Source of the DNA: a virus
Lineage: Duplodnaviria > Heunggongvirae > Uroviricota > Caudoviricetes
Direction: 5' to 3' (one strand)
IMG/VR virus record: IMGVR_UViG_3300037467_003075
Span: 1-64,000 of that record
DNA: 64,000 nt
Shown here: one piece after another, positions 10,772-39,121 of the stretch
How the letters are laid out: every line of letters starts with the position of its first letter
Numbering within the stretch: position 1 is the first letter of the stretch
Program-made: the position numbers and the translations under genes
The notes under the pieces: generated by a model
Seen by the model: the letters and a program-made list of their open reading frames with translations, nothing else
Told to the model about the DNA's origin: nothing
The model's database searches: none

Positions 10772-11644
10772 TTATACTACTGCTTCAATTTTTACTTCAT
10801 CAAGTTTGTTTTCCAAGTAGCGATATGCACTATTCCTGTAAGGCTCAATGTACTGCTCCATACCAAGAGCCTCAAAGAATTTATTGCAGATATTGCCAAT
10901 AGTTTCCTGAGAATAAATCTCTTTGAGGATAAACTCAAGTTGTTCTACAGTAGAATTTTTGACTAGATTGACGATAGCAAGGGACATCATTGCCTGGCCG
11001 ATAAGTTCTTCAACACCACCTACTGCGTGGAAAAGCCTGTATTCAACAGTAGAATAGTTGCTCCCAAGAACATTCATCCATTGATATTTCCCATTCCATA
11101 TTGCATGACGATAGTAACCGTGACTATCTTTACCTTTTATTGAACGGGCATAATTATTAAGATATGTCTGCAATTCGTAGCTGTCTGATGGAGCGTTGTT
11201 CCAGTCGATTCCTTTCACCTTGCTGTTTTTGCGGAAAATCGACCTCCAACCTTTTGAAATATCACAGCAATAATCATTTCCGATGCGGTAATCTTCAACG
11301 AACAGGAAGATAATTTTCTCAATTCCTTTCCCGAAACGAAGTAGCTTTACCTTATCAAGTCCCGTAAAATCGCTGATATCGACATGGATATGTGTTCCAG
11401 CTCGATCATCCGTTCCCCATCCACAGTGTTGCATGTCTTTCCATGTTTCATACAATGGAAACAAGTCAGTCATTGGCTTCGTTCGCAGTTCTACGCCGTA
11501 TGGCTCAAGATCATCTTCCCACTCGTAGTTTTCAAGGCTACCGTCTTGACCAATGCTTACACCAGCAATCTCGATTGACTTTGGATAATCATCCAAATAT
11601 CCTTCCATCTCAATCCCGATCTTGCGATTTGTTATTAATTCCAT
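10772..11644 (-). CDS. GS-like amidoligase (Amidoligase_2 family), paralog 1
   Basis: IGIEMEGY ... QDGSL ... YGVELRTKP ... GTHIHVD ... WMNVLGSNYSTVEYRLF; these motifs recur in four other ORFs. Confidence 0.6.
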   Translation of the reverse strand: MELITNRKIGIEMEGYLDDYPKSIEIAGVSIGQDGSLENYEWEDDLEPYGVELRTKPMTDLFPLYETWKDMQHCGWGTDDRAGTHIHVDISDFTGLDKVKLLRFGKGIEKIIFLFVEDYRIGNDYCCDISKGWRSIFRKNSKVKGIDWNNAPSDSYELQTYLNNYARSIKGKDSHGYYRHAIWNGKYQWMNVLGSNYSTVEYRLFHAVGGVEELIGQAMMSLAIVNLVKNSTVEQLEFILKEIYSQETIGNICNKFFEALGMEQYIEPYRNSAYRYLENKLDEVKIEAVV

Positions 11645-11654
11645 TTAAAAATCT

Positions 11655-11700
11655 CTCCCATAATAGTAGTTGTTTTATACTTGAATTATAAGCGGTACTT
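11655..11700 (-). promoter_or_regulatory. sigma-A-type promoter (TTGACA ... TTATAAT) upstream of amidoligase paralog 1
   Basis: rc: cTTGACAaatttagcaagtaccgcTTATAATtcaagtataaaac. Confidence 0.45.
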
Positions 11701-11717
11701 GCTAAATTTGTCAAGGT

Positions 11718-12056
11718 TTATTTTTCAGTAATTGATTCGATATAATTCCCGAACTGTGTACTATCCTCAACTGTAACTTCAATGTTATATTTTTTGTCTT
11801 TTACAAAAATATTTTCGTATTTAGAAGGTGCTGGACTATCGCCAAGTGCGATTTTATTTCCACTTTCATTCGTGAATACAAAAATTTCACTATTCCTGAT
11901 TATATAGTGTTCTCCTTGATAAGTAAGATTTTTATAAACAATTGTTTTTCCACATCCAGTCAATAGAATAAACGTAAACACGATTAAGATGGATAACACG
12001 ATTTTTTTCATTATAATTTCCTCCTTAAATTTCAGGGAGAATGGTATAATTTTCAT
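11718..12056 (-). CDS. lipoprotein
   Basis: Signal peptide plus lipobox LLTGC. Confidence 0.5.
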   Translation of the reverse strand: MKIIPFSLKFKEEIIMKKIVLSILIVFTFILLTGCGKTIVYKNLTYQGEHYIIRNSEIFVFTNESGNKIALGDSPAPSKYENIFVKDKKYNIEVTVEDSTQFGNYIESITEK

Positions 12057-12083
12057 TCTCCCTGATTATAATATAAGTATAGA

Positions 12084-12971
12084 TTATTTCTTTGTGGTAT
12101 CAGTTGATTGAACCTGTACTAAAATTCCCCCACCATTGCCACCAGAAACTACTTGAGAATTTTGGCCATTCCATTTCTCGATAGCTTTCATCTGAATCAA
12201 TTCTGGTGTAATGGATTGTTGCAATTCCTTGTTGGCTTTTGCCTGGCCTTGAGCAGCGATAAGAGCAGCGTCTGCTTCGCCCTGTGCGGCTACACGCTTT
12301 GTCTGTGCCGTAATCTCTGCCTGTTTCTGTTCCATTTCAAGCTTCTGCAAGGCAAGCTGCGCGTCTACATTCGCCTGAATCGATTTTAATGTGCTGTCAT
12401 CCGCATGAATTGTGCCAAGAGAAAACTCGTCTAAAATAATACCGTCTGGTTCAAGAGATTTTGCCAGGTCATCTCGTACTTTGGCGTTGATCTCAGGAAC
12501 TTTGGAACCGTACAATTCAAATACTGTGTACCCAGAAGTCACGGTGCGAACAGATTTCTGTAATTCTGTTTTAATCCAGCCTTTCTCGATGGTAGCGACT
12601 GGTACGCCACGATACTTGTTGTAGATTTCAGGAAGCTTGTCTGGTAGCATGTGGTACGAATAACGGGCATCTACCGTAATCGATTTGCCCTCGTTGGTCA
12701 CTGTCGGAAATGACTGGTCAGTACCGTCTCCCTCTTTCCCATCCTTGCTCAAGTAAACAGTTTCCTTGGAGATTGGATACTCGATAACCTTTTTCCAAAA
12801 CCACACCGTATGTCTACCCTGTGACAAAACACGGTCTTCTAGACCACCGCTCCAATTGATTACGAGTCCAGCATGACCAGGGCTTACATTATAAGTATTT
12901 GCAAAATAGCCTCCAATTCCCAGAAGAATAACTACTCCTACAAGAATTGCGCCTTTTTTAAACCAATTCAT
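12084..12971 (-). CDS. SPFH/band-7 (prohibitin/HflKC-like) membrane protein
   Basis: N-terminal transmembrane helix, SPFH-like core, C-terminal A/Q-rich coiled coil. Confidence 0.65.
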   Translation of the reverse strand: MNWFKKGAILVGVVILLGIGGYFANTYNVSPGHAGLVINWSGGLEDRVLSQGRHTVWFWKKVIEYPISKETVYLSKDGKEGDGTDQSFPTVTNEGKSITVDARYSYHMLPDKLPEIYNKYRGVPVATIEKGWIKTELQKSVRTVTSGYTVFELYGSKVPEINAKVRDDLAKSLEPDGIILDEFSLGTIHADDSTLKSIQANVDAQLALQKLEMEQKQAEITAQTKRVAAQGEADAALIAAQGQAKANKELQQSITPELIQMKAIEKWNGQNSQVVSGGNGGGILVQVQSTDTTKK

Positions 12972-13191
12972 TTTTAAATATCTCTCCCATTGTCTTTATA
13001 TTCTTCGAACGGCCTTGTAGCACGTTCAATAAATTTCCCTATCCTTTTAAACCATCTTGCTAGGCCGATAAAAAGCAACCCTCCTATAATTAATGCAAAA
13101 ATGACCATCATTACAAGCAAGTCACATCATCCTCTCGTTTATCTTATGCTTATATTATAAGTTAATATAAACCAATAGTCAAGGATAAACG

Positions 13192-13452
13192 CTAAAATAT
13201 TTTTGCAAGGCTATAGCTTTTTACCCTTTTGCACATAATCGCAATTCCCCCGCCAGGTAGATACGCTACATCGCGCACAAGAAGAAGACCAAGCTTTGCG
13301 ATATCAAGATACTGCTGTTCTTCTATGTTCTCTAATATGCGCTGAACGGAAGGGGAGCCGAGATTTTTAATCTTGTAGCACTCAAGGTCATAGTCTTGGA
13401 TTTCTTGATTGTAAGCAGGGACGGCAATTGTAGCGTCTAAAAATATACCCAT
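13192..13452 (-). CDS. hypothetical protein
   Basis: 86 aa ORF. Confidence 0.3.
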   Translation of the reverse strand: MGIFLDATIAVPAYNQEIQDYDLECYKIKNLGSPSVQRILENIEEQQYLDIAKLGLLLVRDVAYLPGGGIAIMCKRVKSYSLAKIF

Positions 13453-13454
13453 AA

Positions 13455-13733
13455 TTATCGTTCCTTTCCATGATTGGATACCTCATAGTACAAAATATGA
13501 TACATAAGATTTAGATACAGTCTTTTCTCCGCCTCGTTTCGTTGCGAGTACCCATTCAATAAGAATGATTCCCATTCTTTAATTATTGGATATGTTGAAG
13601 AATCTAATGTTAGACTGTATCCATGCAACAAATCACGATTGAAAGATTCCCTAAAATAAAAGCTAGTATTAATCTCGCGTAACAACCTAAGTTCTTCTGG
13701 TGTTAGACTAATTATAATTTTAGATGCTATCAT
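13455..13733 (-). CDS. hypothetical protein
   Basis: 92 aa ORF. Confidence 0.3.
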   Translation of the reverse strand: MIASKIIISLTPEELRLLREINTSFYFRESFNRDLLHGYSLTLDSSTYPIIKEWESFLLNGYSQRNEAEKRLYLNLMYHILYYEVSNHGKER

Positions 13734-14122
13734 TTGTTCTCCTCCAATATAGAACGAGCAAAAGTGCCTCCATCAACATGCATATTACTTGAGCCATCTA
13801 CCATACCAACCCAATTTACATCATCTGCATAAAATTTTAACCCATCTCGGTATCGCGCTTCTCTTTCTCGTAATGATTGAAGTTCGACTTCAAGCTGCAT
13901 ATGACTCTCGCGCCATTTCTCTCGATTCAGAAATAAGTCTTCTAGCGCGCCTTTCAGCTGTTCAATTTCCTTCGCTTGTGCTTGGTTCTCGTCTAGCAAT
14001 TGAATGGCTTTTGAAACTGCGTAATACGCTATGCCATATTGCTCATTGTCCCATTCATGAGTAGACTCAAGCTTTTCTTTTCTCTTGGTCAGTTCTTCTC
14101 TAAGTCTTTGGTAGGCATCCAT
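13730..14122 (-). CDS. hypothetical coiled-coil protein
   Basis: 130 aa, heptad-rich. Confidence 0.35.
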   Translation of the reverse strand: MDAYQRLREELTKRKEKLESTHEWDNEQYGIAYYAVSKAIQLLDENQAQAKEIEQLKGALEDLFLNREKWRESHMQLEVELQSLREREARYRDGLKFYADDVNWVGMVDGSSNMHVDGGTFARSILEENK

Positions 14123-14547
14123 TGTTTATTGGCCTCCTTATGAGTAGAAATTAAATAATGTGCAGTATCAGCAATCCATCCATGACTAGGCAAATGGAAT
14201 CCAGTGGTGCCGTCGAAATCTGTAAACTCTTTAGCAAATTCCACTTGACCAGCAATTTCAGGATATTGTTGTTGCAGTGCAACCAGCTGGTATGCCCATT
14301 CATCGAATTGTTTATCGCTTATGATTGAAGTGCCGAACCGATAGTAAATACAAGAATGAACTAGCATCTGTTTGCGGCGGCGGAGAATAAGAGAGGAGAT
14401 ATATGCATAATATTCATCAAAATCTGGTGTTCCATCACCCCACGTTCCAAATGTAAGCTTGCAATCTCTACACCACAGTTCACATCCTCCGTCATGTGCT
14501 GTCATGGGTTTATTGCACGATGGACAATTATGGGTTTGCACTAGCAA
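14089..14547 (-). CDS. hypothetical zinc-ribbon protein
   Basis: N-terminal CPSC...CRDC. Confidence 0.4.
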   Translation of the reverse strand: MLVQTHNCPSCNKPMTAHDGGCELWCRDCKLTFGTWGDGTPDFDEYYAYISSLILRRRKQMLVHSCIYYRFGTSIISDKQFDEWAYQLVALQQQYPEIAGQVEFAKEFTDFDGTTGFHLPSHGWIADTAHYLISTHKEANKQWMPTKDLEKN

Positions 14548-14824
14548 TCACTTCCTGTATTGTTATAAGTGCCTTTTCAATTTCAGCATTTCTTTTGTCT
14601 ATGCGGTAATCATACAGCATGGTACACTTCACAATTGCAGCAAAATTTTTAGCGTCTAAAATAATAGTATCCATCACAAGTAAACCTAAATTGGTGATCT
14701 CAAGATTAAGCGGAATGCCTGTTTGTCTACTTTCCTTGATACGGGAAAGTAATTCACCTTCTTTTGGATTCCGGACTAAAAATCGCTCACTGTTATCGAT
14801 ATCCAGATATATCTTAGCTGCCAA
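14528..14824 (-). CDS. hypothetical protein
   Basis: 98 aa ORF. Confidence 0.35.
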   Translation of the reverse strand: MAAKIYLDIDNSERFLVRNPKEGELLSRIKESRQTGIPLNLEITNLGLLVMDTIILDAKNFAAIVKCTMLYDYRIDKRNAEIEKALITIQEVIASANP

Positions 14825-15458
14825 TTTTTGAGCCCTCCGTTTCCTTGTAAAGATCGTAGCATTTTTTAATCATCCACAGGTGCGGCTCAATCGCTGTTTT
14901 GGCGGAAAAGAAATAAGACGCATATCGCGGATACAGATTCCTGCATTCCTTAAAAAATGGAATAAAAAAAATTTCAGTTTCCACGGCTTGTTTGTATTGT
15001 TTCTCAATTGTCGCATCGCGCAGTGTACTAAAATTGTGCTTACGGTCTGCTGTTTTAACTAGGGCGGCATCACGATTTGATTTGATCGCTTCAAGATATA
15101 ATAATAGATTTTCTAGTACCTTATAATCGACTCCTTTTTTCTTTGTCACCAGGTCAACTGCAACTGCTACTCGTGAACCAAATTTATTTTCAATCATCTT
15201 AATAGTTACGCCATCAACATCTTCTGCCATATCGTGAAGTAGTGTGGCTACAACCACTGCTTCGTCACGGATACCGTAATTCAGAATGTCTTGGGCGGCA
15301 TCAATCGGATGTGTGTAATAGTTGGAGCCATCGTGACGAACGAATCCTTTGCTTGCGTTCATTTCATCCACAAGCCAATCCATAGCACGTAATGCATCAT
15401 TAAATCCAAGAAGCGACAAGCTATTTTCGAAGAATCTTACTCTACTTTCTCCTGCCAT
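14814..15458 (-). CDS. small alarmone hydrolase (RelA/SpoT-type HD domain, Mesh1/SAH-like)
   Basis: HP..AAQDIL.YG.RDEAVVVATLLHDMAEDVDGVT...FG.RVA..VDLVTKKK...KT ADRKHNFSTL is the classic (p)ppGpp-hydrolase HD signature. No synthetase domain is present. Confidence 0.65.
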   Translation of the reverse strand: MAGESRVRFFENSLSLLGFNDALRAMDWLVDEMNASKGFVRHDGSNYYTHPIDAAQDILNYGIRDEAVVVATLLHDMAEDVDGVTIKMIENKFGSRVAVAVDLVTKKKGVDYKVLENLLLYLEAIKSNRDAALVKTADRKHNFSTLRDATIEKQYKQAVETEIFFIPFFKECRNLYPRYASYFFSAKTAIEPHLWMIKKCYDLYKETEGSKIGS

Positions 15459-15464
15459 TTTTAG

Positions 15465-15680
15465 TCACTCTCCATTAATTAGTTTGTCTGCCATCTCAAT
15501 AAGGCTATTAATATTAGCCAAAATTCCTTCAAGCTTCTCTGCTTTATCAATATTATTTTTTATCAGGTAAAATCCAATAGCAACTAAATCCATTGATGTA
15601 TAACCGTTTTCTCGTTTTTCTTCTTCTAGGCAAAGTGCCTCCATACGGAAAGCCTCTTTTTGATATTCATTAAGTGACAT
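15465..15680 (-). CDS. hypothetical protein
   Basis: 71 aa ORF. Confidence 0.3.
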   Translation of the reverse strand: MSLNEYQKEAFRMEALCLEEEKRENGYTSMDLVAIGFYLIKNNIDKAEKLEGILANINSLIEMADKLINGE

Positions 15681-15861
15681 TATTAAGCGCCTCCCTTAAA
15701 TTATAAATCTTGTTCCACAATTCACTGCATTTATTCCAGTTGCTTCCAGACTGCTCTTCTAATTCTTTAATTCTGTCGCTTAAGTGCGATAGCTCCCAGA
15801 CGATATCGTTAAGTATGTCGCATAGCATATCATGACTATCCACTAGTCATAGCCTCCTCTC

Positions 15862-22513: not shown

Positions 22514-23167
22514 TTACTCAGTCCCTGCCCACACAATGTTTCTGTCCACGAACCGCTCTTCATTCCAAACTTTGTCCTCGTACACCAGCTCTTTGCCGTT
22601 CGGACGATAAATATAATGGCATCGTAGGCAAGTTGCGCCTTTGATGTCGAACATTTCCATGCGCACAATAAAGTCTGTGCCTCCGATGTTCCAGTCATAA
22701 AATTTGCTTGATTCGTTGTCAAGCGGATGTGCCGACTTCGCTTTCGCGGCACGATTATTAAAATCAGTAGGACTAAATGGATTAATGTACCGTGTTCGCG
22801 TTATGCCCTCCCTTTCCTCTCTGTGGAAAATCCAGCGCATGCGATGTTCCATTACGCCGAACCAGCTCTTGCTGGCTTCCTCTCTCTCTGTCATGTTCCA
22901 CCTGGGAAGATCATAAGGAGGGAAATCATCTGCTTTCATTGAATAGAATGGTGGCTCTTCAAACGAACTGGAAACCATGCCAAAATCTGACTCGTTGCTA
23001 CTGCTAGGCTCTTCTGTATCGTCAAAAAGGTCATCTTCATCTGACTCGTCTACAGGTAGAGGCACAGCATCATTATGGCGGATAGTCTCATCATCGTTTG
23101 TAATAAACCAAGAAGTGCTATCCCAACCATTTTGTTGCGGCCGAGCTGGTTGTGTAGGTCTAGGCAT
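22514..23167 (-). CDS. hypothetical acidic protein
   Basis: 217 aa with a D/E/S-rich N-terminal half. Confidence 0.4.
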   Translation of the reverse strand: MPRPTQPARPQQNGWDSTSWFITNDDETIRHNDAVPLPVDESDEDDLFDDTEEPSSSNESDFGMVSSSFEEPPFYSMKADDFPPYDLPRWNMTEREEASKSWFGVMEHRMRWIFHREEREGITRTRYINPFSPTDFNNRAAKAKSAHPLDNESSKFYDWNIGGTDFIVRMEMFDIKGATCLRCHYIYRPNGKELVYEDKVWNEERFVDRNIVWAGTE

Positions 23168-25406: not shown

Positions 25407-26747
25407 CTACACAATTTGTCTGTACAGCATAGCACCGATCTCTCTATCGAATGCTACAATCTTATCTTTGCCGATGAACTCAAGCAATTCATTGACTTTC
25501 GTAATCGGCACCGACAAGCGGTTAGCAACTTTGTTTTTCCAGATTGAAACATTTGGACAGTCAGTGATCTGCTGCAAAGAGATGATTTCTTTCAGGTTGT
25601 CAATGTGTTCGCTGTCGATTACTTGTTGCGGATAAATATAATCTTCGATCATCCGCCAGCTCTTGCCGCCGATTCGCATCATGGATGCAGGAGTAACAGC
25701 AATTTTCTTGATGATTTCGTAGGCAGTCGGACTAATCGCAGTGATATCGGACTTGAACCAACGAACCATATCGTTAGCCATTTGCTCAAGTTTAGTAATA
25801 TCTTCGTCGCTCAATTCGCTGGAGTCGCTGTCACGCTCACCAGTGCCAGAATTTGCAAACTTGTCAAACAATGCGCGGCGCATTTCATATTCATCCTGCT
25901 TCATGCTGATTAGGCCACACTGACTAATCTCGATTGCTTTATTCAGCATAGCAACCTCAAGAGCAACCAGTGCGCTTGCATAAGCAGGAGAAAGGTGCGT
26001 ATCAGGATAGCGAATCTCGACATGGAATCGGCAAATTTCATGACCGTCGAAGCGCAGCGGATTCAGGTTTACCATTTGATACTTGCCGTATTTATGATTC
26101 ATACCACTTTGAATATCGCGCATCGAATGCTGGAGTGGGGTATAATCGAACGGAGGCTGACGGAACAATGTGTATCGTGTAATTGCGTACCGTTGTGCGC
26201 CACCACTTGCAATCCAGAATAATTCAGGAGCAAAAATCCTATGAAGCTGATAGAAGTTTGCCAGGATGATTTCAGGCACATTCTTTTCCAGCTCAGAAAA
26301 TTCGCCGTTATAGCTTGCAAGCATGTGAATATGCATCCCTGTGTGATGCGTGGTATAAAAGTCAAACTCTTGAAACTGCTGCATGATTGACTTGTTCATT
26401 TCGTAGAACAGTTTCCAGTCGAAACGGCGGCCAACTGTTACCAGCTCCATACCATTCGGCACTGAGCCATCTGTTTTGACCTCAAGCACACCTGTCTGAC
26501 CAACATATTCGATTGTATTCGTTGGTTGGAATACCTGGCGAAAGCGTCTAAAAATATATTCTTGGTCATGCTCTCGTGGGATATGTACCTCAAACTCTTC
26601 CCCAACTTTGAGGATTTTCCCAAACGTCATTTTCCAGTAGTCAACATCGCGGCTTGTGATACGTCCCATTCGATTGCTAAACATCAGCTTTTCAAACATG
26701 CTTACTTTCTGAGCCATTATTATCATCCTCCTGTATAATGAATACAA
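25407..26747 (-). CDS. GS-like amidoligase-related protein, paralog 3 (divergent)
   Basis: VGEEFEVHIP ... TDGSVPNGMELVTVG ... TGMHIHMLASY ... YQMVNLNPLRF..HEICRFHVEIRYP parallel the motifs of the other paralogs. Confidence 0.5.
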   Translation of the reverse strand: MYSLYRRMIIMAQKVSMFEKLMFSNRMGRITSRDVDYWKMTFGKILKVGEEFEVHIPREHDQEYIFRRFRQVFQPTNTIEYVGQTGVLEVKTDGSVPNGMELVTVGRRFDWKLFYEMNKSIMQQFQEFDFYTTHHTGMHIHMLASYNGEFSELEKNVPEIILANFYQLHRIFAPELFWIASGGAQRYAITRYTLFRQPPFDYTPLQHSMRDIQSGMNHKYGKYQMVNLNPLRFDGHEICRFHVEIRYPDTHLSPAYASALVALEVAMLNKAIEISQCGLISMKQDEYEMRRALFDKFANSGTGERDSDSSELSDEDITKLEQMANDMVRWFKSDITAISPTAYEIIKKIAVTPASMMRIGGKSWRMIEDYIYPQQVIDSEHIDNLKEIISLQQITDCPNVSIWKNKVANRLSVPITKVNELLEFIGKDKIVAFDREIGAMLYRQIV

Positions 26748-26962
26748 TCTGTTTTAATATAGTGATATCGAAAGGAAGCATCGGCAACCCTTGTTGCTTT
26801 AATTTCAAAGCCAGTTACCTGATATAGCCCTAATCCTTTTATGCTAAAAATATCTCCTATATTTGCTCTTTTGATAATTTTAGTTACTGTATTGTCAAGT
26901 CTAATCTTATATATCCCCCCATGAATACCGCTTACTATTATATATGCAAAGTCATACGGCAT
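26723..26962 (-). CDS. small protein, tandem paralog family member
   Basis: GDIFSIKGLGLYQVTGFEI motif shared with the ORFs at 27283, 27552 and 27794. Confidence 0.35.
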   Translation of the reverse strand: MPYDFAYIIVSGIHGGIYKIRLDNTVTKIIKRANIGDIFSIKGLGLYQVTGFEIKATRVADASFRYHYIKTDCIHYTGG

Positions 26963-27004
26963 AATGTTTACCTCTTCTTATTTTATACTTATTTTACAAG
27001 TTTG

Positions 27005-27310
27005 TCAATCATCAAAACCGACCAACTCACAAAGAAATTCCAACTTTTGCGGCCAAGAATCCCAGTTATAATATTCATCGTCATAATCAAATTCAAATAG
27101 ATAACGAGATGAAGAATCAAGAAAAGGGTTTATCGGCCTCATGACAATACTCCTAATACTAAGCGTACCCATTGACAAAATTTCAAATGAATCGCGAAGG
27201 CCAATTGCCTCAAGCTTTTCGGCAACTTCTTCTATATTCTTAATAGGAAATTCCGTTCTTATCTTAGTAGGCGCAACAATCTTTATGCAAGCTTCCGCGA
27301 TTCTAGCCAT
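27005..27310 (-). CDS. hypothetical protein
   Basis: 101 aa ORF. Confidence 0.35.
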   Translation of the reverse strand: MARIAEACIKIVAPTKIRTEFPIKNIEEVAEKLEAIGLRDSFEILSMGTLSIRSIVMRPINPFLDSSSRYLFEFDYDDEYYNWDSWPQKLEFLCELVGFDD

Positions 27311-30384: not shown

Positions 30385-30425
30385 TCGAAATTTTTAATCT
30401 GTTTTTATATTATAAATGCATTATA
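30385..30425 (-). promoter_or_regulatory. sigma-A-type promoter upstream of GAT-II paralog 2
   Basis: rc: cTTGACAcctggttataatgcattTATAATATaaaaac. Confidence 0.45.
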
Positions 30426-30502
30426 ACCAGGTGTCAAGTAGAAATATTGATTATTTTGGAGCAGCAACCAATATTAGATCACTGCTCCGTTATAATGCAA
30501 TA

Positions 30503-31624: not shown

Positions 31625-31672
31625 TTTATCTTATAGTTGTATTATAATTGATTCTAACTTAAGCTGTCAACT
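31625..31672 (-). promoter_or_regulatory. sigma-A-type promoter upstream of amidoligase paralog 4
   Basis: rc: gTTGACAgcttaagttagaatcaatTATAATAC. Confidence 0.45.
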
Positions 31673-31678: not shown

Positions 31679-32419
31679 TCACTTAATCTTTTCGTCTAAT
31701 ATTTGACGCAAATGCGTTTCCTTATCATCGTAATTGCCTGTCATGATCTGAAACTCAGGCACCATGCTGTCAACAAACCAATCAGCATTAGCAATATACT
31801 GATTCGCTTGCTTCACAGTGCCGTCAGGCAAATAAACATCGATCATCATGCGATTGTACATATTGTACTCAGGACTTGCATCAGGATTATACCCTTCTGT
31901 GTAATCGTAGGAATTTACGACAATATGCAGCGGAATTTCAAAATATGTGCCGTACACTTTGTCACTTTCGTTCTCCGTTAATTTCGTAACCGGGAATCCT
32001 CTACCACCAGTAGCGTACATTATTTGACTCTTAACATAGGCATTAGGGATAATGTTAACGCCACCTTCTGCCTCAATGTTCTCGACATATTTGAGAATGC
32101 CGTAAGTAAACATCGGCACCATTTCACTGTACGGAGCCATTGCCGCCCCCACGGTTTTAGAATCAAATAATTGATTCATAACATGCTCAGTAAACTGATA
32201 GTTATTGTTGCGAATCAGTAACTTAGCCAGGCTGTCGGCACCTTCATCATAAGCTATGTCTGTCATAACTCTCGACCAACAAGAGATACAAAGTCTTTTA
32301 CCGCTAAAATGTTCGCTACCGGGCAAAAAATAGACAGTGAATTTAGCGGAATTGTTATTGCACTTTTCACACATTACAACTCGATTTTTCAATTTTACTA
32401 TCTCCTTTGTTTTACGCAT
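31679..32419 (-). CDS. AIG2/GGCT-like (gamma-glutamyl cyclotransferase fold) protein, paralog 1, with N-terminal zinc ribbon
   Basis: FTYGILKY (YGSL-type motif) and C-terminal EGYNPDASPEYNMYNRMMIDVYLPDGT...A.QY, paralogous to 33360-34034. Confidence 0.5.
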   Translation of the reverse strand: MRKTKEIVKLKNRVVMCEKCNNNSAKFTVYFLPGSEHFSGKRLCISCWSRVMTDIAYDEGADSLAKLLIRNNNYQFTEHVMNQLFDSKTVGAAMAPYSEMVPMFTYGILKYVENIEAEGGVNIIPNAYVKSQIMYATGGRGFPVTKLTENESDKVYGTYFEIPLHIVVNSYDYTEGYNPDASPEYNMYNRMMIDVYLPDGTVKQANQYIANADWFVDSMVPEFQIMTGNYDDKETHLRQILDEKIK

Positions 32420-32786
32420 ATTGGAATGAGAAAGATTCTACAACTGTGTTCTCTTTGACGTATGGATTCGCCTTATCAAGCACTGTCACCAATACAATAT
32501 TATATTTTTCGATTGCAAATATTGTTGACAGGTTCTTATCCTTGTCGGATATTAGAATTTGTTTGCCGCTGTTATTGTACATTTCCAACTTCGTCCCTAA
32601 TCCCAAGATAGCACTGGCAATTTGATACTTGTTTAGTCTGCGTTGCTTAATACGTTTGATTGCGTGATTTGTAGCAATCAGTCGAAAAAATTTCCCACTG
32701 ACGAAAAAACCAGTAATTTCGTTTTCGTTTAACATTTCCATATACTTTGCACCAACCTTCTCTTTTTTTGATACAAGTATATGCAA
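32412..32786 (-). CDS. hypothetical protein
   Basis: 124 aa ORF. Confidence 0.35.
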   Translation of the reverse strand: MHILVSKKEKVGAKYMEMLNENEITGFFVSGKFFRLIATNHAIKRIKQRRLNKYQIASAILGLGTKLEMYNNSGKQILISDKDKNLSTIFAIEKYNIVLVTVLDKANPYVKENTVVESFSFQYA

Positions 32787-33359: not shown

Positions 33360-34034
33360 TTAAGCGCGATAACCGCTAAAAACGTATAAAACATAGTCGC
33401 CATGTGGAATAGCGCGGCAACCATTCTTTGCCCTGGTGTCCGCACAGAAGTATGCCCACGCTTCCACCTGTGTACCATCGGAGAGTGTAACATTAACCAG
33501 CTTGCGATTGTAATGGTTATATTTTGGATTTCGTTTTGGATTGTACCCCTCAAGGCTGTCAAGGTCAGCCAGCATACGGACATAGTCTTTTTCGTCAACC
33601 CACATAACTTCGCCATGCACTTTCTTGTCACCTTCGAACATGTAAGGCAAACTGTATCCCCTAACAAACAATTCACCCTGTATTGTTGCCGCCTCTTCGC
33701 GAATTGTTTTTTTATGGAAATAATATCTGTGGTTACTCATTCCTCTGCGTAAGGTGCCATAAACAAAGAACGGATATTGTTTTTCGATTCCAGTTTCGCC
33801 TTGAACACGAACCAAACTACCAATAGAATCCAAAATTAGATTGAAGTCATAGGACAACATCCAATATGTTCCGTCAAATAAGAAAGTCCAATCCTTGCCG
33901 TTGTCCGTTGCGGATTCATGTAATTCGCGGGTGTCGCGCCGCTTTCCTTCATATCCAACAACAATCTTATTGTTTCTCATGCCGTATATATTGATCTTAC
34001 CCCAATACGTTTGCTTGCTTGCTAAAACTGGCAT
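33360..34034 (-). CDS. AIG2/GGCT-like (gamma-glutamyl cyclotransferase) protein, paralog 2
   Basis: PFFVYGTLRRGMSNH (GGCT YGSL-type motif) ... LDSLEGYNPKRNPKYNHYNRKLVNVTLSDGTQVEAWAYF. Confidence 0.6.
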   Translation of the reverse strand: MPVLASKQTYWGKINIYGMRNNKIVVGYEGKRRDTRELHESATDNGKDWTFLFDGTYWMLSYDFNLILDSIGSLVRVQGETGIEKQYPFFVYGTLRRGMSNHRYYFHKKTIREEAATIQGELFVRGYSLPYMFEGDKKVHGEVMWVDEKDYVRMLADLDSLEGYNPKRNPKYNHYNRKLVNVTLSDGTQVEAWAYFCADTRAKNGCRAIPHGDYVLYVFSGYRA

Positions 34035-34055
34035 TGTAATTCCTCCGATATGATT

Positions 34056-34265
34056 TTAGATTTTTTTACGCTTTACGATATAACGGCTGCCGTCGCATGC
34101 GACCAGTTCCCATCCTTGCTCTCCGACTTTATTAAGGGCAGTCAAAAGATCGGGAACATCAAGACTAGTTTCCTTTTTAGCACACGATAGAATCCAATTC
34201 GTGGAATATAAACGACTCTCCATAACAAGATAAGCATATTCAAATTCGGGCAATTTAAATACCAC
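34056..34265 (-). CDS. hypothetical protein
   Basis: 69 aa ORF. Confidence 0.3.
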   Translation of the reverse strand: MVFKLPEFEYAYLVMESRLYSTNWILSCAKKETSLDVPDLLTALNKVGEQGWELVACDGSRYIVKRKKI

Positions 34266-34270
34266 CTAAC

Positions 34271-34537
34271 TTAGTATGTATGTAGCTTTCCACCAGTATA
34301 AAGCTTAGCCCAGTGATTCTTTCCGCGATTTCGTACAAGAGGAATAGTATTCTCGTCTTCTTTCTCTTCTTCTTGGCGGCGAGGAACATTCGGAGAAATG
34401 TCTAATATTTGACTGACACCCCGATATTCAGGGAAAGTCTCAAGCTTAGTACGCGCCTCCTTTTCACTACTGGCACGAAGAGCCAAATTAACCTCAACCC
34501 CATTCATAACAACATCAGCATACATTCTTTTCGCCAT
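34271..34537 (-). CDS. hypothetical protein (start trimmed to the ATG after RBS AAAGGAG)
   Basis: MAKRMYADVV... follows an RBS. Confidence 0.35.
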   Translation of the reverse strand: MAKRMYADVVMNGVEVNLALRASSEKEARTKLETFPEYRGVSQILDISPNVPRRQEEEKEDENTIPLVRNRGKNHWAKLYTGGKLHTY

Positions 34538-35016
34538 TATCGTCAACTCCTTTGAATTTAATATTTGATTTCTTACTTTTAGCCATATAAAGGGAATCAG
34601 TATCGACTCCCTCATCTTCCAATGTCAATCCATATTTCCAGCTGGTGGCGACAACAATAGCAAAAATCAAAAGGGAAAGTAGTAACATGTCACGCCTCCC
34701 TCGAAACAAGCATTTTCACTCTTGTTCTGCTATTAAGAGAATCACCGACAACGCCAAGTATTTGAATTACCGTCACTTCCTCATCCTCAGGTCTACACTT
34801 GGAGCCTGGCTCTACAACTTGATAAGGATGTAACGTCACATAGACAATATCGGTCACTTTGTTATCCCTCCATTATGGTCAAAAATTTGACTTTGACCTT
34901 TTCAGCTTTCCGATACGTTATAATATTCGATTGCAACACCATCTTTCGGCCGCAGTCCTCAACGAACACAAACCATTTGCGCCAACGTTTCCCTAAATCA
35001 ATACCGATGTGGATTT

Positions 35017-35262
35017 TCATACTTCACTCACTGGATAAGAGATATCTGCATAATGCTCGGATAGAACCTCATGCAACAATTCAGATTCATGCGAAGAATA
35101 TAATGTTATACGCTCTTGTTTCTCTTTGTCAGTTAGAGTAGAATTTTTGATTCTCTCCTTAACGTTTGCCAACGCATCCAGCGCAGTATCTTTGCTGCCG
35201 AACAAAATATTGATTGCGTCATTCCAGCTCATAGACTGTTCTTGCCGCTTCCTCTTGCCCAT
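35017..35262 (-). CDS. hypothetical protein
   Basis: 81 aa ORF. Confidence 0.3.
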   Translation of the reverse strand: MGKRKRQEQSMSWNDAINILFGSKDTALDALANVKERIKNSTLTDKEKQERITLYSSHESELLHEVLSEHYADISYPVSEV

Positions 35263-35564
35263 TATCTCACCGTCCCTAAAGTCTTATATTCTACTACATG
35301 CCGAAAGAGCATCATTGAAATTGTATTCTTACTTAATTCTTTATTGTGTATTTCGACATAGCTTGGAATCTGCAACAACGCTTGAACGCGCATCGAATTT
35401 TCTATATTCTTATCGTCCTCCAAGTGCCAAGCAACCCAACCAGGCGGCAAAAAGCCACCGACAAACGAAACAAGTTCCTCAAACTCAGCATCAGAATACT
35501 CATGTGTGAATCTCACAAGAGAACCTAATTCATTAAGACGATTCCCAATGATGTGCCTTGCCAT
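35262..35564 (-). CDS. hypothetical protein
   Basis: 100 aa ORF preceded by an ATCTAAAATTATAT motif and RBS. Confidence 0.35.
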   Translation of the reverse strand: MARHIIGNRLNELGSLVRFTHEYSDAEFEELVSFVGGFLPPGWVAWHLEDDKNIENSMRVQALLQIPSYVEIHNKELSKNTISMMLFRHVVEYKTLGTVR

Positions 35565-35579
35565 TGTTATCCCTCCAAT

Positions 35580-35660
35580 ATAATTTTAGATTTCAACTTA
35601 TGTAGCCATCCAAGCTATTGAATATTAAACTCAATAGCTTGATTTTAACACATAAGCTTT
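35580..35660 (-). promoter_or_regulatory. ATCTAAAATTATAT promoter-like motif plus upstream hairpin with AATATT loop
   Basis: rc: caagctattgaGTTTAATATtcaatagcttg ... ATCTAAAATTATATTGGAGGGataacaATG. Confidence 0.45.
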
Positions 35661-35671
35661 AAGCTTGCAAC

Positions 35672-35947
35672 TTAATTTTGCCGTCCAATATTATAGCTTA
35701 CTTGTGTCCCCCAAAATTCACCTTTGTCATTGAAGCAAGCAACGATGTTATTTACTTCCTTCGGCAACGTTGCAAGTTCTGCCTTGATATCTCGCAGTAA
35801 ATGGCGGCGCAGTCTACCAGTAACCGTTGTCCCATCCTCCAAATGGTAGGTAACAGGAACAAAGTAGCGATGCGCACCGATGCCATTGTTCTTCTCGACT
35901 TTCGCACCCTCGACAGGTGCTATTTTTACGATCTTAATCTCTTTCAT
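35672..35947 (-). CDS. hypothetical protein
   Basis: 91 aa ORF. Confidence 0.35.
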   Translation of the reverse strand: MKEIKIVKIAPVEGAKVEKNNGIGAHRYFVPVTYHLEDGTTVTGRLRRHLLRDIKAELATLPKEVNNIVACFNDKGEFWGTQVSYNIGRQN

Positions 35948-36475
35948 GTTCGTCCCTCCTTAAAGTATATTATTTGATTTAAACTATGCCTCATCCAATT
36001 CCACATCATCCCACCAAGCAGTAGGATTCGTTTTAGGGTTACGGTCATATTTGTTCAATTCATTACAACGTGCTTCTGCTAATTCCTGTGTGCTCCACAC
36101 GGAATCAAAGTTTCGTGCATCCCGGTTTTGTTCGTCTTTCATGACAACATATAGCTTCATTGTGACTAAAGCCTCCTTTTTGTATATTATTTGACGCTAA
36201 CTTTCCACATTGCTACCTTTTTGCGTAGCTTAGCAGCCATGCGATGCTTACCATTCGTTTCCGCTTCCACCAGCTTGGATAAGAGACTATAATAGCTATC
36301 AGATACCATTCAGTGCACCCCTTTCATGAAGTCGCTAACCGGGGAAAGAATAGTGTATAAAATTATATACAAGCCAACAATAGCAACCGTACCGACAACT
36401 GAGATAGCCAACAGGGAAAGCCACACTTGCCAGCGCGGCCTCCCCCATGTGATGCCGATTGATTGAAAGAATCTC

Positions 36476-37114
36476 TTATCCATGCTGTGCCTCCGTTACC
36501 TTTGTCATGTTCACAACTGCAACTTTCGGAATCCAACCTGACCAGGTGAATGAGGCCATTTGACGCTTCATTTCTTCATATCGCTCCTGCAGCTCTTCCT
36601 CCGAATTTAGCGGATTGATATGGAAGTGCTGTCCGCATATCGGCCCTAATCCATACAGGAGGCTGACAGGATGCGTCAATTCGTGACCGCAATGCAAGCA
36701 ATGCGACGATGGAGCCAAAAAGCCTTTCAACTCGACCAGGTAGGCTTTTGTAGTCTCTTTTTTGATTATACCACGCATTTCACGGCAAGGGATAGGATTA
36801 TTTTCCTGTTTCGTCAACCATTTTTTCACCCTAATTTGATATTCCTGCCGCGGTACCGTTTCACGCACAGGATTGATTGCAGGGGCCGGAGACTCAACTT
36901 TGGAGAACCTGGAACGCACTGCTGGCAACTTAATTTCCCAATCAGCAAACACTTTTTCTACTGCCGTGTTATCGTCAACGTGTGCCATGAAGAACGTTGA
37001 ACCAGCTGCATCCTTGCCAATTAATTCCATCATGATAGTGCGATTAAATTCGGGCGAACGATAGTTAAAAAACTGACCAGTAAACTGACCTCTCGAAACC
37101 GTTGCCGTTGCCAT
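36476..37114 (-). CDS. hypothetical protein with Cys cluster
   Basis: 212 aa; CLHCGHE...ICGQ; preceded by the motif and RBS GGGAGG. Confidence 0.4.
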   Translation of the reverse strand: MATATVSRGQFTGQFFNYRSPEFNRTIMMELIGKDAAGSTFFMAHVDDNTAVEKVFADWEIKLPAVRSRFSKVESPAPAINPVRETVPRQEYQIRVKKWLTKQENNPIPCREMRGIIKKETTKAYLVELKGFLAPSSHCLHCGHELTHPVSLLYGLGPICGQHFHINPLNSEEELQERYEEMKRQMASFTWSGWIPKVAVVNMTKVTEAQHG

Positions 37115-37127
37115 TTTGTTATTCCTC

Positions 37128-37200
37128 CCTAGAATATAATTTTAGATTGAATTGCTTAATTGGGAGCAGGAATCTAATATTAAACTCCTGCTCTTTTGCT
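37128..37200 (-). promoter_or_regulatory. ATCTAAAATTATAT promoter-like motif plus hairpin (stem GAGCAGGA/TCCTGCTC, loop containing AATATTAGAT)
   Basis: Read directly; same loop and a different stem from the copy at 37590-37660. Confidence 0.45.
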
Positions 37201-37207
37201 AAGCGAT

Positions 37208-37552
37208 TCAAGCTTGTTTTTGAGGCCAGTATTTCTGCGGCAGTATGATCGTTTTGAATGACCATCCTGCGCCATAGGCTGCGCGATAGTTGGAAAGCAA
37301 GTGCACCTTGTCGCTTCTGTCCGTTGCATAGTCGCAGTGTTCATATTCTCTATCACCTTGCATACGGCAAAGAATCTGAAATTGATAACCAGTTTCCGGT
37401 GAATACGCTTTAGGCAATGTCATTTTGTTTTCCTCCTTTTTATGCCCGCTCAAATTAAGCTTTTCAGCGAGTCGATTCATCATTTCTTGCCTCCATTCCG
37501 ACGAGTCTTGCGCGGCCGAATGTACAACAAAGGCAATTCTTCCATTTCCCAA
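37208..37552 (-). CDS. hypothetical protein (start uncertain)
   Basis: No in-frame ATG near the ORF start; an ATG at 37578 is out of frame, suggesting a frameshift or non-ATG start. Confidence 0.3.
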   Translation of the reverse strand: MGNGRIAFVVHSAAQDSSEWRQEMMNRLAEKLNLSGHKKEENKMTLPKAYSPETGYQFQILCRMQGDREYEHCDYATDRSDKVHLLSNYRAAYGAGWSFKTIILPQKYWPQKQA

Positions 37553-37584
37553 AAATTCGTGTAGCCAAGTTTTAGCATTGTTAT

Positions 37585-37662
37585 TCCTCCGATCTAATTT
37601 TAGATTGTTTCGTACAATCCATTGAATGAGACGATGAATCTAATATTCGACCATCGTCTCAC
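37585..37662 (-). promoter_or_regulatory. ATCTAAAATTAGAT promoter-like motif plus hairpin (stem GAGACGATG/CATCGTCTC, loop GTCGAATATTAGATT)
   Basis: Read directly. Confidence 0.45.
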
Positions 37663-37678
37663 CCTAGCATTTTACGAA

Positions 37679-39121
37679 TCAATCACCCATGTACACCAGG
37701 CGGCCCGCCATAAACTCAAGATCGACATTTTCACGCTTGAACATTTGATACAGGCTGACCGCTTGTTTTTGCTGCACCCCAAGGAAAGCAGCGATGTTCA
37801 AATGAAAGTCGTTCAAGTTTCCAGCCATCGGCACCGCGAAACGCTTGATTGCTTCGATATAGCGGCCGCGCAGCTCATCATCGCGCACCCTGATGCGAGT
37901 CGAAAAGTGTGATTCCATTTTCGTCATGTCGTAATTTTGCTCTATTTTGTTTTCCTCCAAAAACTGAGGAATCGGGCAGTCAATCAGTTTGTCAAGCACA
38001 TCCAGCGCATCCAGCGAACCAGAAAGCTTGAAATATTTGAAAAGATAGGACTTCATTAGCGTATAATTTTCGACGATATACGTCTTATCCACTCGTTTCC
38101 AATTCACCGAATGATTCTGAGCCTGATTTTGACTGGCCTCGATTTCAGCTTTCGACGGCATGAAGTAGAAGCTATTCCGCGCCATATCGTAGGCAAACAA
38201 TGCGATTGCGCGATTCAAGGCGAACCAAGCGGACATCATGCTAGCGGAAAAATTGCAGTCCATCATGCGGTTTTCGAAGTGGAATGCATCAGTAAAGCGT
38301 GTATCCCACTCGTATTCCATGTCGCGGCCGTCATATCGATTCCAGAAGCCATTGCCACAAGGAATGCGGAAACACGATTCGCGCTGCATACTGACCATAT
38401 AGCCGTCAGTCTTTTTCGTGTGACCATTTTCTTCTGTACCGACAGCCGTTCTAATATTATACTCTACGGCATTGTACCAAGAGTAAAGCCTATCGCCATG
38501 CATCATATCATAACCATTCCCTGCTGTCCTACGTGCACCGCGAATGTTTGTCATTGACACCCATTTCAGCACTGGGAGGAAACGAACCAAGAACATGGCA
38601 ACGTTGCGGTACATTTTCATGACTGGCAGCTTGATTGCCACCACAGAACCATCCTCACCACCAAAATCCGCATAGGCGACAGCAGTGTGCACATGTGTGC
38701 TGGCACCGTAGTTATGGCGAACGCCGCCCGACGCTTCCAGGTAAATCGGCATGATACGATCAAACTCATCTTTAATGCCGTTGAAATCGTAAGCATGGAA
38801 CGGACTAGTTGAAGTTTCCGTTGAGTGCCAGTCACGATTTTCAACGTAGCAGCCGCCGCCGTCAGTATGAGAATCGTCATTCCAGCCGTTGCCGTCGTTT
38901 ATTGCTTTCGAAGAGGCGCAGCCAGCGCCGATTGTATTCAGACGACGAAGCGTTGTGCCTGGTCCATTTGCAGTAGGTGCTTCAAATTCGCACCCTTGAC
39001 GGATAAAACGATTGATTGCCGACAGCGACTGCTGCTTCCCGTTCATTTGCTCCATAAACTCTTTACTGTTCACCGTTACCACTTTCCTTCCGTTTTGGTT
39101 TGTTTTCCCTTCTGAATACAA
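37679..39121 (-). CDS. GS-like amidoligase-related protein, paralog 5 (divergent; start uncertain)
   Basis: GCEFEAP ... STHVHTA ... SWYNAVEYNIR echo the paralog motifs. A TTGACA-N17-TAATAT promoter sits at 39122-39150. Confidence 0.45.
   Translation of the reverse strand: MYSEGKTNQNGRKVVTVNSKEFMEQMNGKQQSLSAINRFIRQGCEFEAPTANGPGTTLRRLNTIGAGCASSKAINDGNGWNDDSHTDGGGCYVENRDWHSTETSTSPFHAYDFNGIKDEFDRIMPIYLEASGGVRHNYGASTHVHTAVAYADFGGEDGSVVAIKLPVMKMYRNVAMFLVRFLPVLKWVSMTNIRGARRTAGNGYDMMHGDRLYSWYNAVEYNIRTAVGTEENGHTKKTDGYMVSMQRESCFRIPCGNGFWNRYDGRDMEYEWDTRFTDAFHFENRMMDCNFSASMMSAWFALNRAIALFAYDMARNSFYFMPSKAEIEASQNQAQNHSVNWKRVDKTYIVENYTLMKSYLFKYFKLSGSLDALDVLDKLIDCPIPQFLEENKIEQNYDMTKMESHFSTRIRVRDDELRGRYIEAIKRFAVPMAGNLNDFHLNIAAFLGVQQKQAVSLYQMFKRENVDLEFMAGRLVYMGD

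Follow-up and report, generated by a model that had tools for sequence, protein, structure and literature searches.

A many-membered set of putative amide-bond ligases, amidotransferase-fold enzymes and cyclotransferases among the predicted early genes of a Paenibacillus element

Genes for ligases of the Amidoligase_2 family were reportedly found by Iyer, Abhiman, Burroughs and Aravind in 2009 (Mol Biosyst) next to genes for a glutamine amidotransferase (GAT)-like thiol peptidase or an AIG2 cyclotransferase on mobile elements, and such neighbourhoods are said to have been predicted to carry out amide or peptide ligation followed by removal. The present study concerns a set of genes of these kinds in a 64-kb stretch of DNA (positions 1 to 64,000 of the IMG/VR record IMGVR_UViG_3300037467_003075; hereafter the window), which makes up ~40% of an element of ~163 kb. 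As in the 2009 neighbourhoods, the same three families stand together on a mobile element. There, however, one of each was found, whereas the window has five ligases (A1 to A5), two GATs (G1 and G2) and two cyclotransferases (C1 and C2); the GAT and AIG2 partners are here present together, and the set also differs in having long winged-helix ligases missed by the Pfam model and a RuvB-like partner. We tentatively read it, at somewhat less than an even likelihood, as a toolkit for writing and erasing amide bonds of the gamma-glutamyl type, encoded by early genes of a Paenibacillus element; we infer the target, the purpose and, by analogy with characterised members, the chemistry.

Attachment of a group by a ligase and its later removal are familiar from transient gamma-glutamyl pathways, namely EgtA/EgtC (ergothioneine), BtrJ/BtrG (butirosin, BtrG having the GGACT fold) and PuuA/PuuD (putrescine use). 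In these, too, a ligase activates glutamate, and the gamma-glutamyl group is later taken off by a GAT-type hydrolase or a GGACT-fold cyclotransferase. Those pathways, however, are encoded in chromosomal operons of metabolism, act on known small substrates and include tailoring enzymes, whereas here we deal with mobile-element early genes, with DNA- or protein-binding appendages and no tailoring enzymes nearby. Pupylation (PafA, Dop, Pup, Mpa and the proteasome) differs in that neither a Pup-like tag with a conserved C-terminal Glu/Gln nor a proteasome is seen here; the presumed erasers have the N-terminal nucleophile (Ntn) GAT fold and the GGACT fold and are not Dop, and the ATPase is RuvB-like and not Mpa. 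Phage thymidine hypermodification, which is reported (Lee et al. 2018, 2022) to proceed via 5-hydroxymethyldeoxyuridine (5-hmdU), the 5-HMUDK kinase, aGPT-Pplase and further tailoring, also has phage genes attach amino-acid-derived groups to a target. GS-fold ligases have no part in it, however, and its defining enzymes were not found among the window open reading frames (ORFs) scanned with Pfam, i.e. the 36 plausible ones of the 39 of at least 150 aa (the other three overlap better-supported genes or fall in a non-coding gap).

The co-occurrence of Amidoligase_2 with GAT or AIG2 proteins, which the original prediction for this window rightly took to be an established neighbourhood, is visible in LUZ24-like phages (PMC3890496) and in Tn6164, and clusters of amidoligase and GAT genes, some with AIG2, have been reported from LUZ24-like, phiEco32-like, crAss-like and OM43 phages, archaeal viruses and jumbo phages. 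The LUZ24-like/phiEco32-like cluster consists of COOH-NH2_lig, Amidoligase_2, GAT, ATP-grasp and AIG2 genes, as tabulated for phage UFV-P2 (PMC3890496). Like the present set, it lies in an early/replication region, where several amide ligases are encoded together with a GAT of ~490 aa and an AIG2 protein; exactly that mix, plus a long ligase, is carried by the distant relatives L003-L017 described below. By contrast, the five ligases of the window are all GS-fold enzymes, and the genes of the set lie spread over 28 kb and in several cases have their own promoter. No match to COOH-NH2_lig (PF14395), ATP-grasp or GNAT was seen in the scanned window ORFs; the first two are present in L003. What is new here is the multiplicity of the enzymes with every paralog conserved, a long winged-helix ligase subfamily without a family model, a minimal core that includes a RuvB-like ATPase across very distant elements, and the promoter architecture.

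The enzymes and their conserved core

All nine ORFs were found where the original prediction had placed them (Table 1), on the minus strand and spread over 28 kb (10772-39121). Searches with hidden Markov models (HMMs) put seven of them above the curated Pfam cut-offs, A3 and A5 being the two without a match, and within-window BLAST linked A1, A2 and A4 to one another, G1 to G2, and C1 to C2. The predicted count of five ligases, two GATs and two cyclotransferases is exact: when every stop-to-stop ORF of the window was searched with HMMs, neither extra paralogs nor pseudogene remnants came up. A remnant of a sixth amidoligase was sought in the window where Paenibacillus xylanexedens has a tandem copy, and was not found.

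The Pfam gathering cut-off for Amidoligase_2 (PF12224) is 22 bits and was passed by A1, A2 and A4. A1 and A2 are 37% identical; their orthologs in related loci (designated L plus a number) are 55% identical for A1 (in L001, where there is one more tandem paralog), 63% for A2 (in P. xylanexedens) and 49% for A4 (in L001/L019). A3 and A5 had no Pfam, NCBIfam or PHROG match and no BLAST link to the other three. Once their homologs had been collected and aligned (58 for A3, 30 for A5), the two families matched each other over their full length (hhalign probability 97.9%) and matched the Amidoligase_2 paralogs over the catalytic motifs (profile-profile probability 93.7% and 93.4%). The AlphaFold models of A3 and A5 are confident (pLDDT 88.6 and 87.8), and A3 had 34 neighbours at E <= 1e-3 among predicted viral structures, mostly phage 'amidoligase' proteins, including those of Pseudomonas phage tf, Cellulophaga phi14:2, crAss-like viruses and Atu_ph07.

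The motifs of A3 (GEEFEV / DGSV / MELVT / GMHIHM / HVEIR) and A5 (GCEFEA / DGNG / TETST / STHVHT / HFENR) are degenerate relative to those from which five amidoligase-type ORFs had originally been proposed; that assignment holds, by Pfam for A1, A2 and A4 and by profile-profile comparison and fold for A3 and A5. All five retain E-x-E, D-G-S/N, E, H-x-H and E-x-R, which vary little or not at all in the alignment of each family; they thereby show, with the fold, the metal/ATP residues (E-x-E, H-x-H, E-x-R) that define the glutamine synthetase/glutamate-cysteine ligase (GS/GCL)-fold superfamily. By sequence, model and analogy, A1 to A5 are putative ATP-dependent amide-bond ligases.

A3 and A5 form a separate sister subfamily of Amidoligase_2, linked to it at the profile-profile and fold level and without a Pfam model. 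The long-ligase profile retrieved 302 representative clusters at E <= 1e-3 among 1.84 billion, and a winged helix is found in A3, in A5 and in the whole long-ligase family. A3 is the most conserved gene of the nine; its true start is likely the ATG at 26717, which would give 436 aa, the length of its closest homologs. A5, the first large gene of the unidirectional block, may also start downstream of the called position, its homologs having 425-510 aa. In A4 the appendage is an insert of ~95 aa after the DGSL motif, with eight CxxC motifs and of the cysteine-rich DnaJ/BSD2 type (BSD2_CRD, E 0.0025).

G1 and G2 had been taken for Ntn class-II GATs from their Met-Cys-Gly-Ile start, and this was borne out, both beginning M-C-G-I (G1 via GTG) and scoring above the GATase_6 and GATase_7 cut-offs. 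Across eight GAT sequences M1-C2, R89, N101-N102-H103-P104, H114-N115-G116 and D137-S138-E139 are invariant. Matches to GlmS, PurF, AsnB and EgtC are weak and confined to the GAT domain, and no fused synthase (acceptor) domain is recognisable in the C-terminal 150-170 aa of either protein. Because the GlmS, PurF and AsnB matches are limited to the glutaminase domain, G1 and G2 are regarded as Ntn enzymes that stand alone, although either may form a complex with the neighbouring ligase. The C-terminal region of G1 (~150 aa) has no assigned family, whereas that of G2 closes with a zinc ribbon (DUF7479, E 2e-4).

The two ORFs originally noted for an AIG2/GGCT motif and a shared C-terminal block are indeed GGACT proteins by Pfam (cut-off 22.8 bits), and the block is 50% identical between them over 38 aa. 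C2 belongs to phrog_2520 (gamma-glutamyl cyclotransferase) and has an N-terminal extension of ~88 aa without assigned family, while the extension of C1, whose ortholog in L001/L019 is 55% identical, contains a four-Cys zinc-ribbon-like motif (CEKC...CISC). Invariant in the GGACT alignment are F, Y-G-x-L, D..E-G and N-x-Y-N-R. A DUF4258 (toxin-like) protein is encoded between the two genes, and at the same place in P. xylanexedens, with 64% identity.

Searching with A2 returned 18 proteins among 5.8 billion, the closest named ones being from P. xylanexedens and P. illinoisensis (contigs of ~160-161 kb). The ~161-kb contig of P. xylanexedens (RPHH01000009.1, L019) has the window genes in the same order: the A5 ortholog, ArdA, small genes, two GGACT genes, A4, G2, a helix-turn-helix gene and small genes, then A3, G1, the ortholog of a 217-aa protein, A2 and RuvB, and further on DUF2786, Band_7, A1 and the extra tandem Amidoligase_2. 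Orthologs in the two elements are 40-70% identical and paralogs within the window 25-37%; since the former exceed the latter, the duplications are old and every copy has been kept. Such gene-by-gene conservation of the whole set in a related element puts its occurrence far beyond chance. With its tandem copy, the element of P. xylanexedens reaches six GS-fold ligases. The genes of L022 are arranged differently, and sets that are comparable, though rearranged, occur on a 178-kb contig and on two IMG/VR contigs of 146 and 158 kb. The 217-aa protein, which had no Pfam, NCBIfam or PHROG match, keeps its place: in L001, L006 and L007 its gene directly follows a GAT gene, and in L001 it also precedes A2.

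More distant relatives of A3 (~30% identity, 530-570 aa) are found on IMG/VR contigs of 45-269 kb and on Muribaculaceae and Stahlbacteria contigs from metagenome-assembled genomes; a scan of representative genomes gave three distant loci in all. The distant loci (L003-L017) share a collinear cassette of ~18 genes (e.g. L003 330-20754). It starts with a ~1,100-aa RNA-polymerase-like protein, an SSB-like protein and a ResIII helicase, goes on with a COOH-NH2 ligase, the long ligase, a short GAT, a protein without assigned family, a long GAT, a second COOH-NH2 ligase, an ATP-grasp enzyme and a GNAT, and ends with another protein without assigned family, a RuvB-like ATPase and a sigma-70-like factor. 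The COOH-NH2 ligases, ATP-grasp enzyme and GNAT there replace the Amidoligase_2 and GGACT genes, and a GAT lies directly downstream of the A3-type long ligase throughout. The ~1,100-aa protein has weak, sub-threshold matches to the Rpb2 and Rpb1 double-psi barrel domains.

The core comparison took in the window and 15 loci (16 sources) and relied on ORF clustering for most of them, gaps left by the ORF caller being filled by tblastn and by the collection's own gene calls. Three families alone are common to the Paenibacillus-type and the distant loci: the long ligase (16/16 sources), the GAT (two in 14/16, one each in L007 and L022) and the RuvB-like ATPase (15/16, none being found in the 2.9-kb contig L005). 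The ATPase gene had been missed by ORF clustering in L007 and L022, and in the latter was taken from the collection's gene calls. In the window this protein has full RuvB_N, lid and RuvB_C domains, with intact Walker A (GNPGLGKTT) and Walker B (FIDEIH) motifs. From these gene contents, the conserved core consists of the winged-helix long ligase, GAT genes (normally two) and the RuvB-like AAA+ ATPase, the other ligases and the cyclotransferases being lineage-specific additions. The ATPase, previously listed among the neighbours, is probably a conserved partner of the long ligase and the GATs and not a bystander; this partnership, and the standing of the long ligases as a separate unmodelled winged-helix subfamily, were missed by the original prediction.

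The gene block and its promoters

The nine genes lie in a run of ~40 kb (2.5-42.4 kb) with a uniformly negative GC skew and with practically every plausible gene on the minus strand. Its 45 further small ORFs (2544-42955) gave two Pfam matches in all, one of them to the PTS HPr family (E 2.8e-9). A strict scan of the window revealed ten perfect TTGACA-N16-18-TATAAT sites, nine of them on the minus strand, where by our own estimate ~0.02 would be expected by chance; with a looser definition, 51 sites were counted between 29 and 43 kb against 30 expected from shuffled sequences. The perfect sites mostly lie 30-41 nt before small ORFs, with spacers of 17 or 18 nt. Upstream of A3, an 11/12 site precedes a 79-aa ORF (26723-26962) which leads into that gene and overlaps its listed start.

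These sites suggest many independent, strong, host-polymerase-dependent transcription units across the window, and predicted sigma-A promoters are consistent with early genes read by the host sigma-A polymerase. An early-gene block, as originally proposed, fits these features: ~40 kb on one strand, small ORFs that are almost all of unknown function, and sigma-A promoters before several genes. Of the neighbours then listed, the HD_4 hydrolase and the RuvB-like ATPase are present as stated, whereas the DUF932 gene lies inside the block but outside the 10772-39121 interval given for it. Promoters of their own before several genes mean that the set does not form a single operon; the arrangement suggests two sub-modules, one of GGACT, ligase and GAT genes (32.4-29.2 kb), the other of long ligase, GAT, 217-aa protein, ligase and RuvB (26.7-20.2 kb), plus solitary genes.

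Table 1. Features of the window and their coordinates
Feature	Coordinates	Strand	Remarks
A1, Amidoligase_2 ligase, 290 aa	10772..11644	-	Pfam 24.0 bits; solitary; downstream of SPFH/Band_7 gene
A2, Amidoligase_2 ligase, 296 aa	21564..22454	-	Pfam 46.7 bits; phrog_2443 (amidoligase)
A3, long GS/GCL-fold ligase, 446 aa as listed	25407..26747	-	C-terminal winged helix
A4, Amidoligase_2 ligase, 367 aa	30503..31606	-	Pfam 47.0 bits
A5, long GS/GCL-fold carboxylate-amine ligase, 480 aa as called	37679..39121	-	C-terminal helical region and winged helix
G1, stand-alone Ntn class-II GAT-fold enzyme, 367 aa	23188..24291	-	GTG start; GATase_6 50.5, GATase_7 27.5 bits
G2, stand-alone Ntn class-II GAT-fold enzyme, 388 aa	29202..30368	-	GATase_6 55.4, GATase_7 37.6, GATase_4 23.2 bits
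C1, GGACT-fold cyclotransferase, 246 aa	31679..32419	-	Pfam GGACT 24.9 bits, marginal
C2, GGACT-fold gamma-glutamyl(amine) cyclotransferase, 224 aa	33360..34034	-	Pfam GGACT 89.6 bits, residues 89-215
RuvB-like AAA+ ATPase, 329 aa	20173..21162	-	RuvB_N E 1.2e-50, RuvB_C 1.5e-18
Conserved 217-aa protein	22514..23167	-	between G1 and A2; homologs at matching position in L001, L006, L007
Perfect promoter, TTGACA-18-TATAAT	31641..31670	-	35 nt upstream of A4
Perfect promoter, TTGACA-17-TATAAT	30409..30437	-	41 nt upstream of G2
Perfect promoter	11714-11685	-	41 nt upstream of A1
Promoter, 11/12	22498-22470	-	16 nt upstream of A2
Promoter, TTGACA-17-TAAAAT, 11/12	26980..27008	-	18 nt before 79-aa ORF
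Other perfect promoters	6570-6542, 7352-7324, 7630-7602, 18465-18437, 59637-59609, 61240-61212	-	
Other perfect promoter	49943-49971	+	
T4CP-like ATPase (TrwB_AAD_bind; phrog_5156)	1-1443	+	cut by window start
Replic_Relax protein	1478-2458	+	after T4CP-like ATPase
DUF932 gene	5358-6290		inside ~40-kb block
Zinc-ribbon protein with Nlig-Ia NAD+-binding domain	14089-14547	-	E 1.6e-30
HD_4 (RelA/SpoT-type hydrolase) protein	14814-15458	-	
DUF4258 (toxin-like) protein	32412-32786	-	between C1 and C2
Gap without convincing ORFs, ~2.2 kb	40100-42370		
22-bp tandem repeat, 3.2 copies	41875-41946		iteron-like
DUF4326-NADAR fusion	48274-49044	+	
Accessory enzyme run	51257-55826	-	
GDSL lipase	56257-57540	+	after accessory enzyme run
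19 tRNA genes	57596-62618	-	small ORFs interspersed
RF-1-domain (ArfB-like) protein, 127 aa	61251-61634		within tRNA array
C5-methylase-like ORF, 219 aa	63292-63951	-	C-terminal third of model

A possible function and its alternatives

In the toolkit that we tentatively propose, three enzyme families would all work on glutamate-linked amide bonds, the five GS/GCL-fold ATP-dependent carboxylate-amine ligases acting as 'writers' and the two Ntn GAT-fold cysteine amidohydrolases and two GGACT cyclotransferases as 'erasers' or processing enzymes. Soon after cell entry, the ligases would activate a glutamate-type carboxylate as an acyl phosphate, which would then be joined to amino groups on one or more targets, most likely proteins tied to DNA, replication or transcription, less likely a small metabolite or DNA itself. 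The GAT enzymes would supply ammonia or cleave gamma-glutamyl amides, and the GGACT enzymes would clip gamma-glutamyl groups off as 5-oxoproline. Between them the enzymes could assemble, mature and take off adducts, which would aid host takeover, establishment or counter-defence. Macromolecular and probably DNA-associated targets are suggested because of the winged helix, the DnaJ-type insert, the zinc ribbons and the RuvB link.

Several points weigh against this proposal. We know of no Amidoligase_2 member that has been characterised biochemically, and a sequence search for solved structures with the Amidoligase_2 profile found none. Papers of 2023 and 2025 still call the function of Amidoligase_2 clusters unexplored. 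The single multi-step pathway of the original prediction is not established, the genes being dispersed over 28 kb and several having their own promoter. The GATs, standing alone, could simply donate ammonia, a DNA target would suit the winged helix and the RuvB-like motor equally well, and the RuvB link could reflect common ancestry of a replication or early region instead of function, especially in the collinear distant group. No substrate or tag was identified, and no conserved small protein ends in Glu/Gln. As to a Pup-like tag, the C-termini of the small ORFs were examined and none had a Glu/Gln end conserved across the relatives; 7 of 84 ORFs in the block end in Glu, which is about the background rate. 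A more far-reaching version of the proposal, which we think improbable, is that the core is an unrecognised modification machine which, in a cell newly entered, attaches and removes glutamyl-type groups on DNA-bound proteins or DNA without a Pup-like tag, the extra ligases and cyclotransferases widening its range of targets.

Among the alternatives, a small-molecule pathway is in our judgement rather unlikely. Step by step, the ligases would build a peptide-like or gamma-glutamylated metabolite (for instance a cell-wall precursor blocking superinfection, a gamma-glutamylated polyamine or a cofactor-like compound), with gamma-glutamyl as a transient protecting group removed by the GAT or GGACT enzymes. 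EgtA/EgtC, BtrJ/BtrG and PuuA/PuuD are precedents for this, and the GATs have their weak EgtC matches. The distant cassette, with four ligases and a GNAT, resembles a peptide assembly line, and cell-wall modification or secondary-metabolite synthesis has been proposed in papers citing Iyer 2009. However, transporter, tailoring and precursor-supply genes are all missing from the block, metabolic enzymes seldom have winged-helix, DnaJ-type or zinc-ribbon appendages, and individual promoters are found rather than one biosynthetic operon. The same promoters, strong and placed before several of the dispersed genes, fit another idea, namely that there is no joint pathway and the paralogs are independent arms-race early effectors, each acting on a different host molecule, e.g. 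by capping or destroying an amine-containing immune signal or by modifying one host protein. So do the unrelated small ORFs that are interleaved with them, the copy number that differs between relatives (six GS-fold ligases in P. xylanexedens, another arrangement in L022) and the other putative counter-defence enzymes around (HD_4, Nlig-Ia and an RNase_T exonuclease, ArdA in the relative and, further right and on the opposite strand, the NADAR fusion). Yet the long ligase-GAT and GGACT-ligase-GAT adjacencies are conserved, long ligase, GATs and RuvB-like gene occur together in 15 of the 16 sources, and the co-occurrence of the three families has long been recognised across phages; we consider independent effectors improbable.

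Modification of nucleic acid, in which the winged-helix ligases, with help from the RuvB-like translocase, would add glutamyl or amino-acid groups to DNA bases, nucleotides or tRNA and so protect the element's DNA by a new hypermodification or reprogramme translation, seems to us very unlikely. It would account for the winged helix in both long ligases and the whole family, for the constant RuvB-like link and for the place of the distant module among RNA-polymerase-like, SSB-like, helicase and sigma-factor genes, and the element encodes 19 tRNAs and a thymidine kinase. Bacillus phage SP10, which shares the T4CP-like ATPase family and whose DNA contains alpha-glutamylthymidine, is a precedent. 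Against this, the scanned window ORFs gave no match to a dUMP/dCMP hydroxymethylase, hmU kinase, aGPT-Pplase or DpdA-like protein, the C5-methylase-like ORF and the ArdA of the relative suggest ordinary DNA in need of conventional anti-restriction, and we know of no GS-fold enzyme that acts on nucleic acids. The original prediction had itself remarked that neither hydroxymethylase nor hmU kinase is visible, in agreement with these scans; its comparison with DNA hypermodification finds no support here and is weakened, with ~40% of the element in view.

The element, its other genes and what the set may mean

The window appears to belong to a ~160-kb extrachromosomal Paenibacillus element, a large phage or phage-plasmid. 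'Phage' is probable, and to that extent the phage-like character first ascribed to the block stands; it is unproven in that there is no virion gene in the window and a relative has ParA, DnaD_N and ArdA. Neither virion nor mating-pair genes are visible in the ~64 kb plus readable flanks. A conjugative plasmid, whose 40-kb block would be a leading region with establishment or anti-defence factors made in the recipient, is a live though rather unlikely alternative. The leading-region traits seen are a one-strand block, a Replic_Relax protein and a T4CP-like ATPase (a family also of Herelleviridae) at its far end, and ArdA in the relative, while neither oriT nor ssDNA promoters were identified; the DUF932 gene lies inside the block. 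In L019 (1-12051) ParA and a DnaD_N protein are encoded upstream of the block and ArdA directly after the A5 ortholog, while ArdA was not found among the scanned window ORFs. Two assemblies of the ~161-kb P. xylanexedens contig have different ends, as expected of a circular molecule, an iteron-like repeat occurs in the gap that precedes the block, and the ATPase has plasmid homologs, in Firmicutes and archaea, that are annotated as type IV coupling proteins. However, the ATPase family phrog_5156 is standard in Herelleviridae (including SP-10 and Nachito) and Bacillus phage G, the relatives are filed as viral in IMG/VR, and the window encodes, besides its tRNA array, a thymidine kinase, ClpP, an RF-1/ArfB-like protein, HNH endonucleases and a VWA protein of which 219 phage records contain homologs. 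Two Amidoligase_2/DNA queries of PLSDB gave no match, and a 2024 survey of plasmid leading regions includes no amidoligase family among those given.

Megablast of 20-25 kb window stretches against phage and plasmid collections, tblastn of A2 against the same collections, and tblastn of A5 and of a 562-aa distant long-ligase homolog against phages all failed to give a match; in the collections searched, the element seems to have no close deposited relative. The genes at the window edge had no IMG/VR relative, the ATPase weakly matching one 6-kb metagenome contig.

A gap of ~2.2 kb without convincing ORFs (40.1-42.4 kb) separates the minus block from a plus block starting at 43035, and may be a replication origin. 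A large structured non-coding RNA was considered for it and rejected: there was no Rfam match even at E 1, and folding was no better than for shuffled sequences (z -0.61). L019 has a similar gap of 1.9 kb (7413-9339), with no detectable nucleotide similarity to that of the window.

Among the other genes, the Nlig-Ia protein is encoded ~270 bp downstream of the HD_4 protein, with a 98-aa ORF between them, and the two may act together in counter-defence, with NAD or alarmones as targets. The NADAR domain of the DUF4326 fusion is of a kind linked to DarT1 antitoxins; domains of the NADAR family undo the ADP-ribosylation of DNA. The accessory run comprises the VWA protein, a DHH/DHHA1 phosphoesterase, an SH3 and NlpC/P60 peptidase, thymidine kinase and ClpP. 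ARAGORN counts 19 tRNA genes (Rfam 17), for 15 amino acids. The C5-methylase-like ORF covers positions 234-322 of the 324 of the cytosine methylase model, found generic matches only and may be truncated or split.

Seventeen years after the prediction, the product or target of such clusters is still a puzzle. The window offers a favourable entry point, with all enzymes intact, several of them behind their own sigma-A promoter, and close relatives in cultured Paenibacillus isolates; comparison isolates a minimal core of long ligase, GATs and RuvB-like ATPase which is directly testable, and the long-ligase subfamily (~300 representative clusters, no Pfam model) deserves a family definition. To a specialist the set will not be greatly surprising; it is a concrete and tractable route to an old question. 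Should protein or DNA adducts turn out to be made, host takeover or counter-defence would here use chemistry of a new type; should a metabolite be made, phages would be credited with a new compound.

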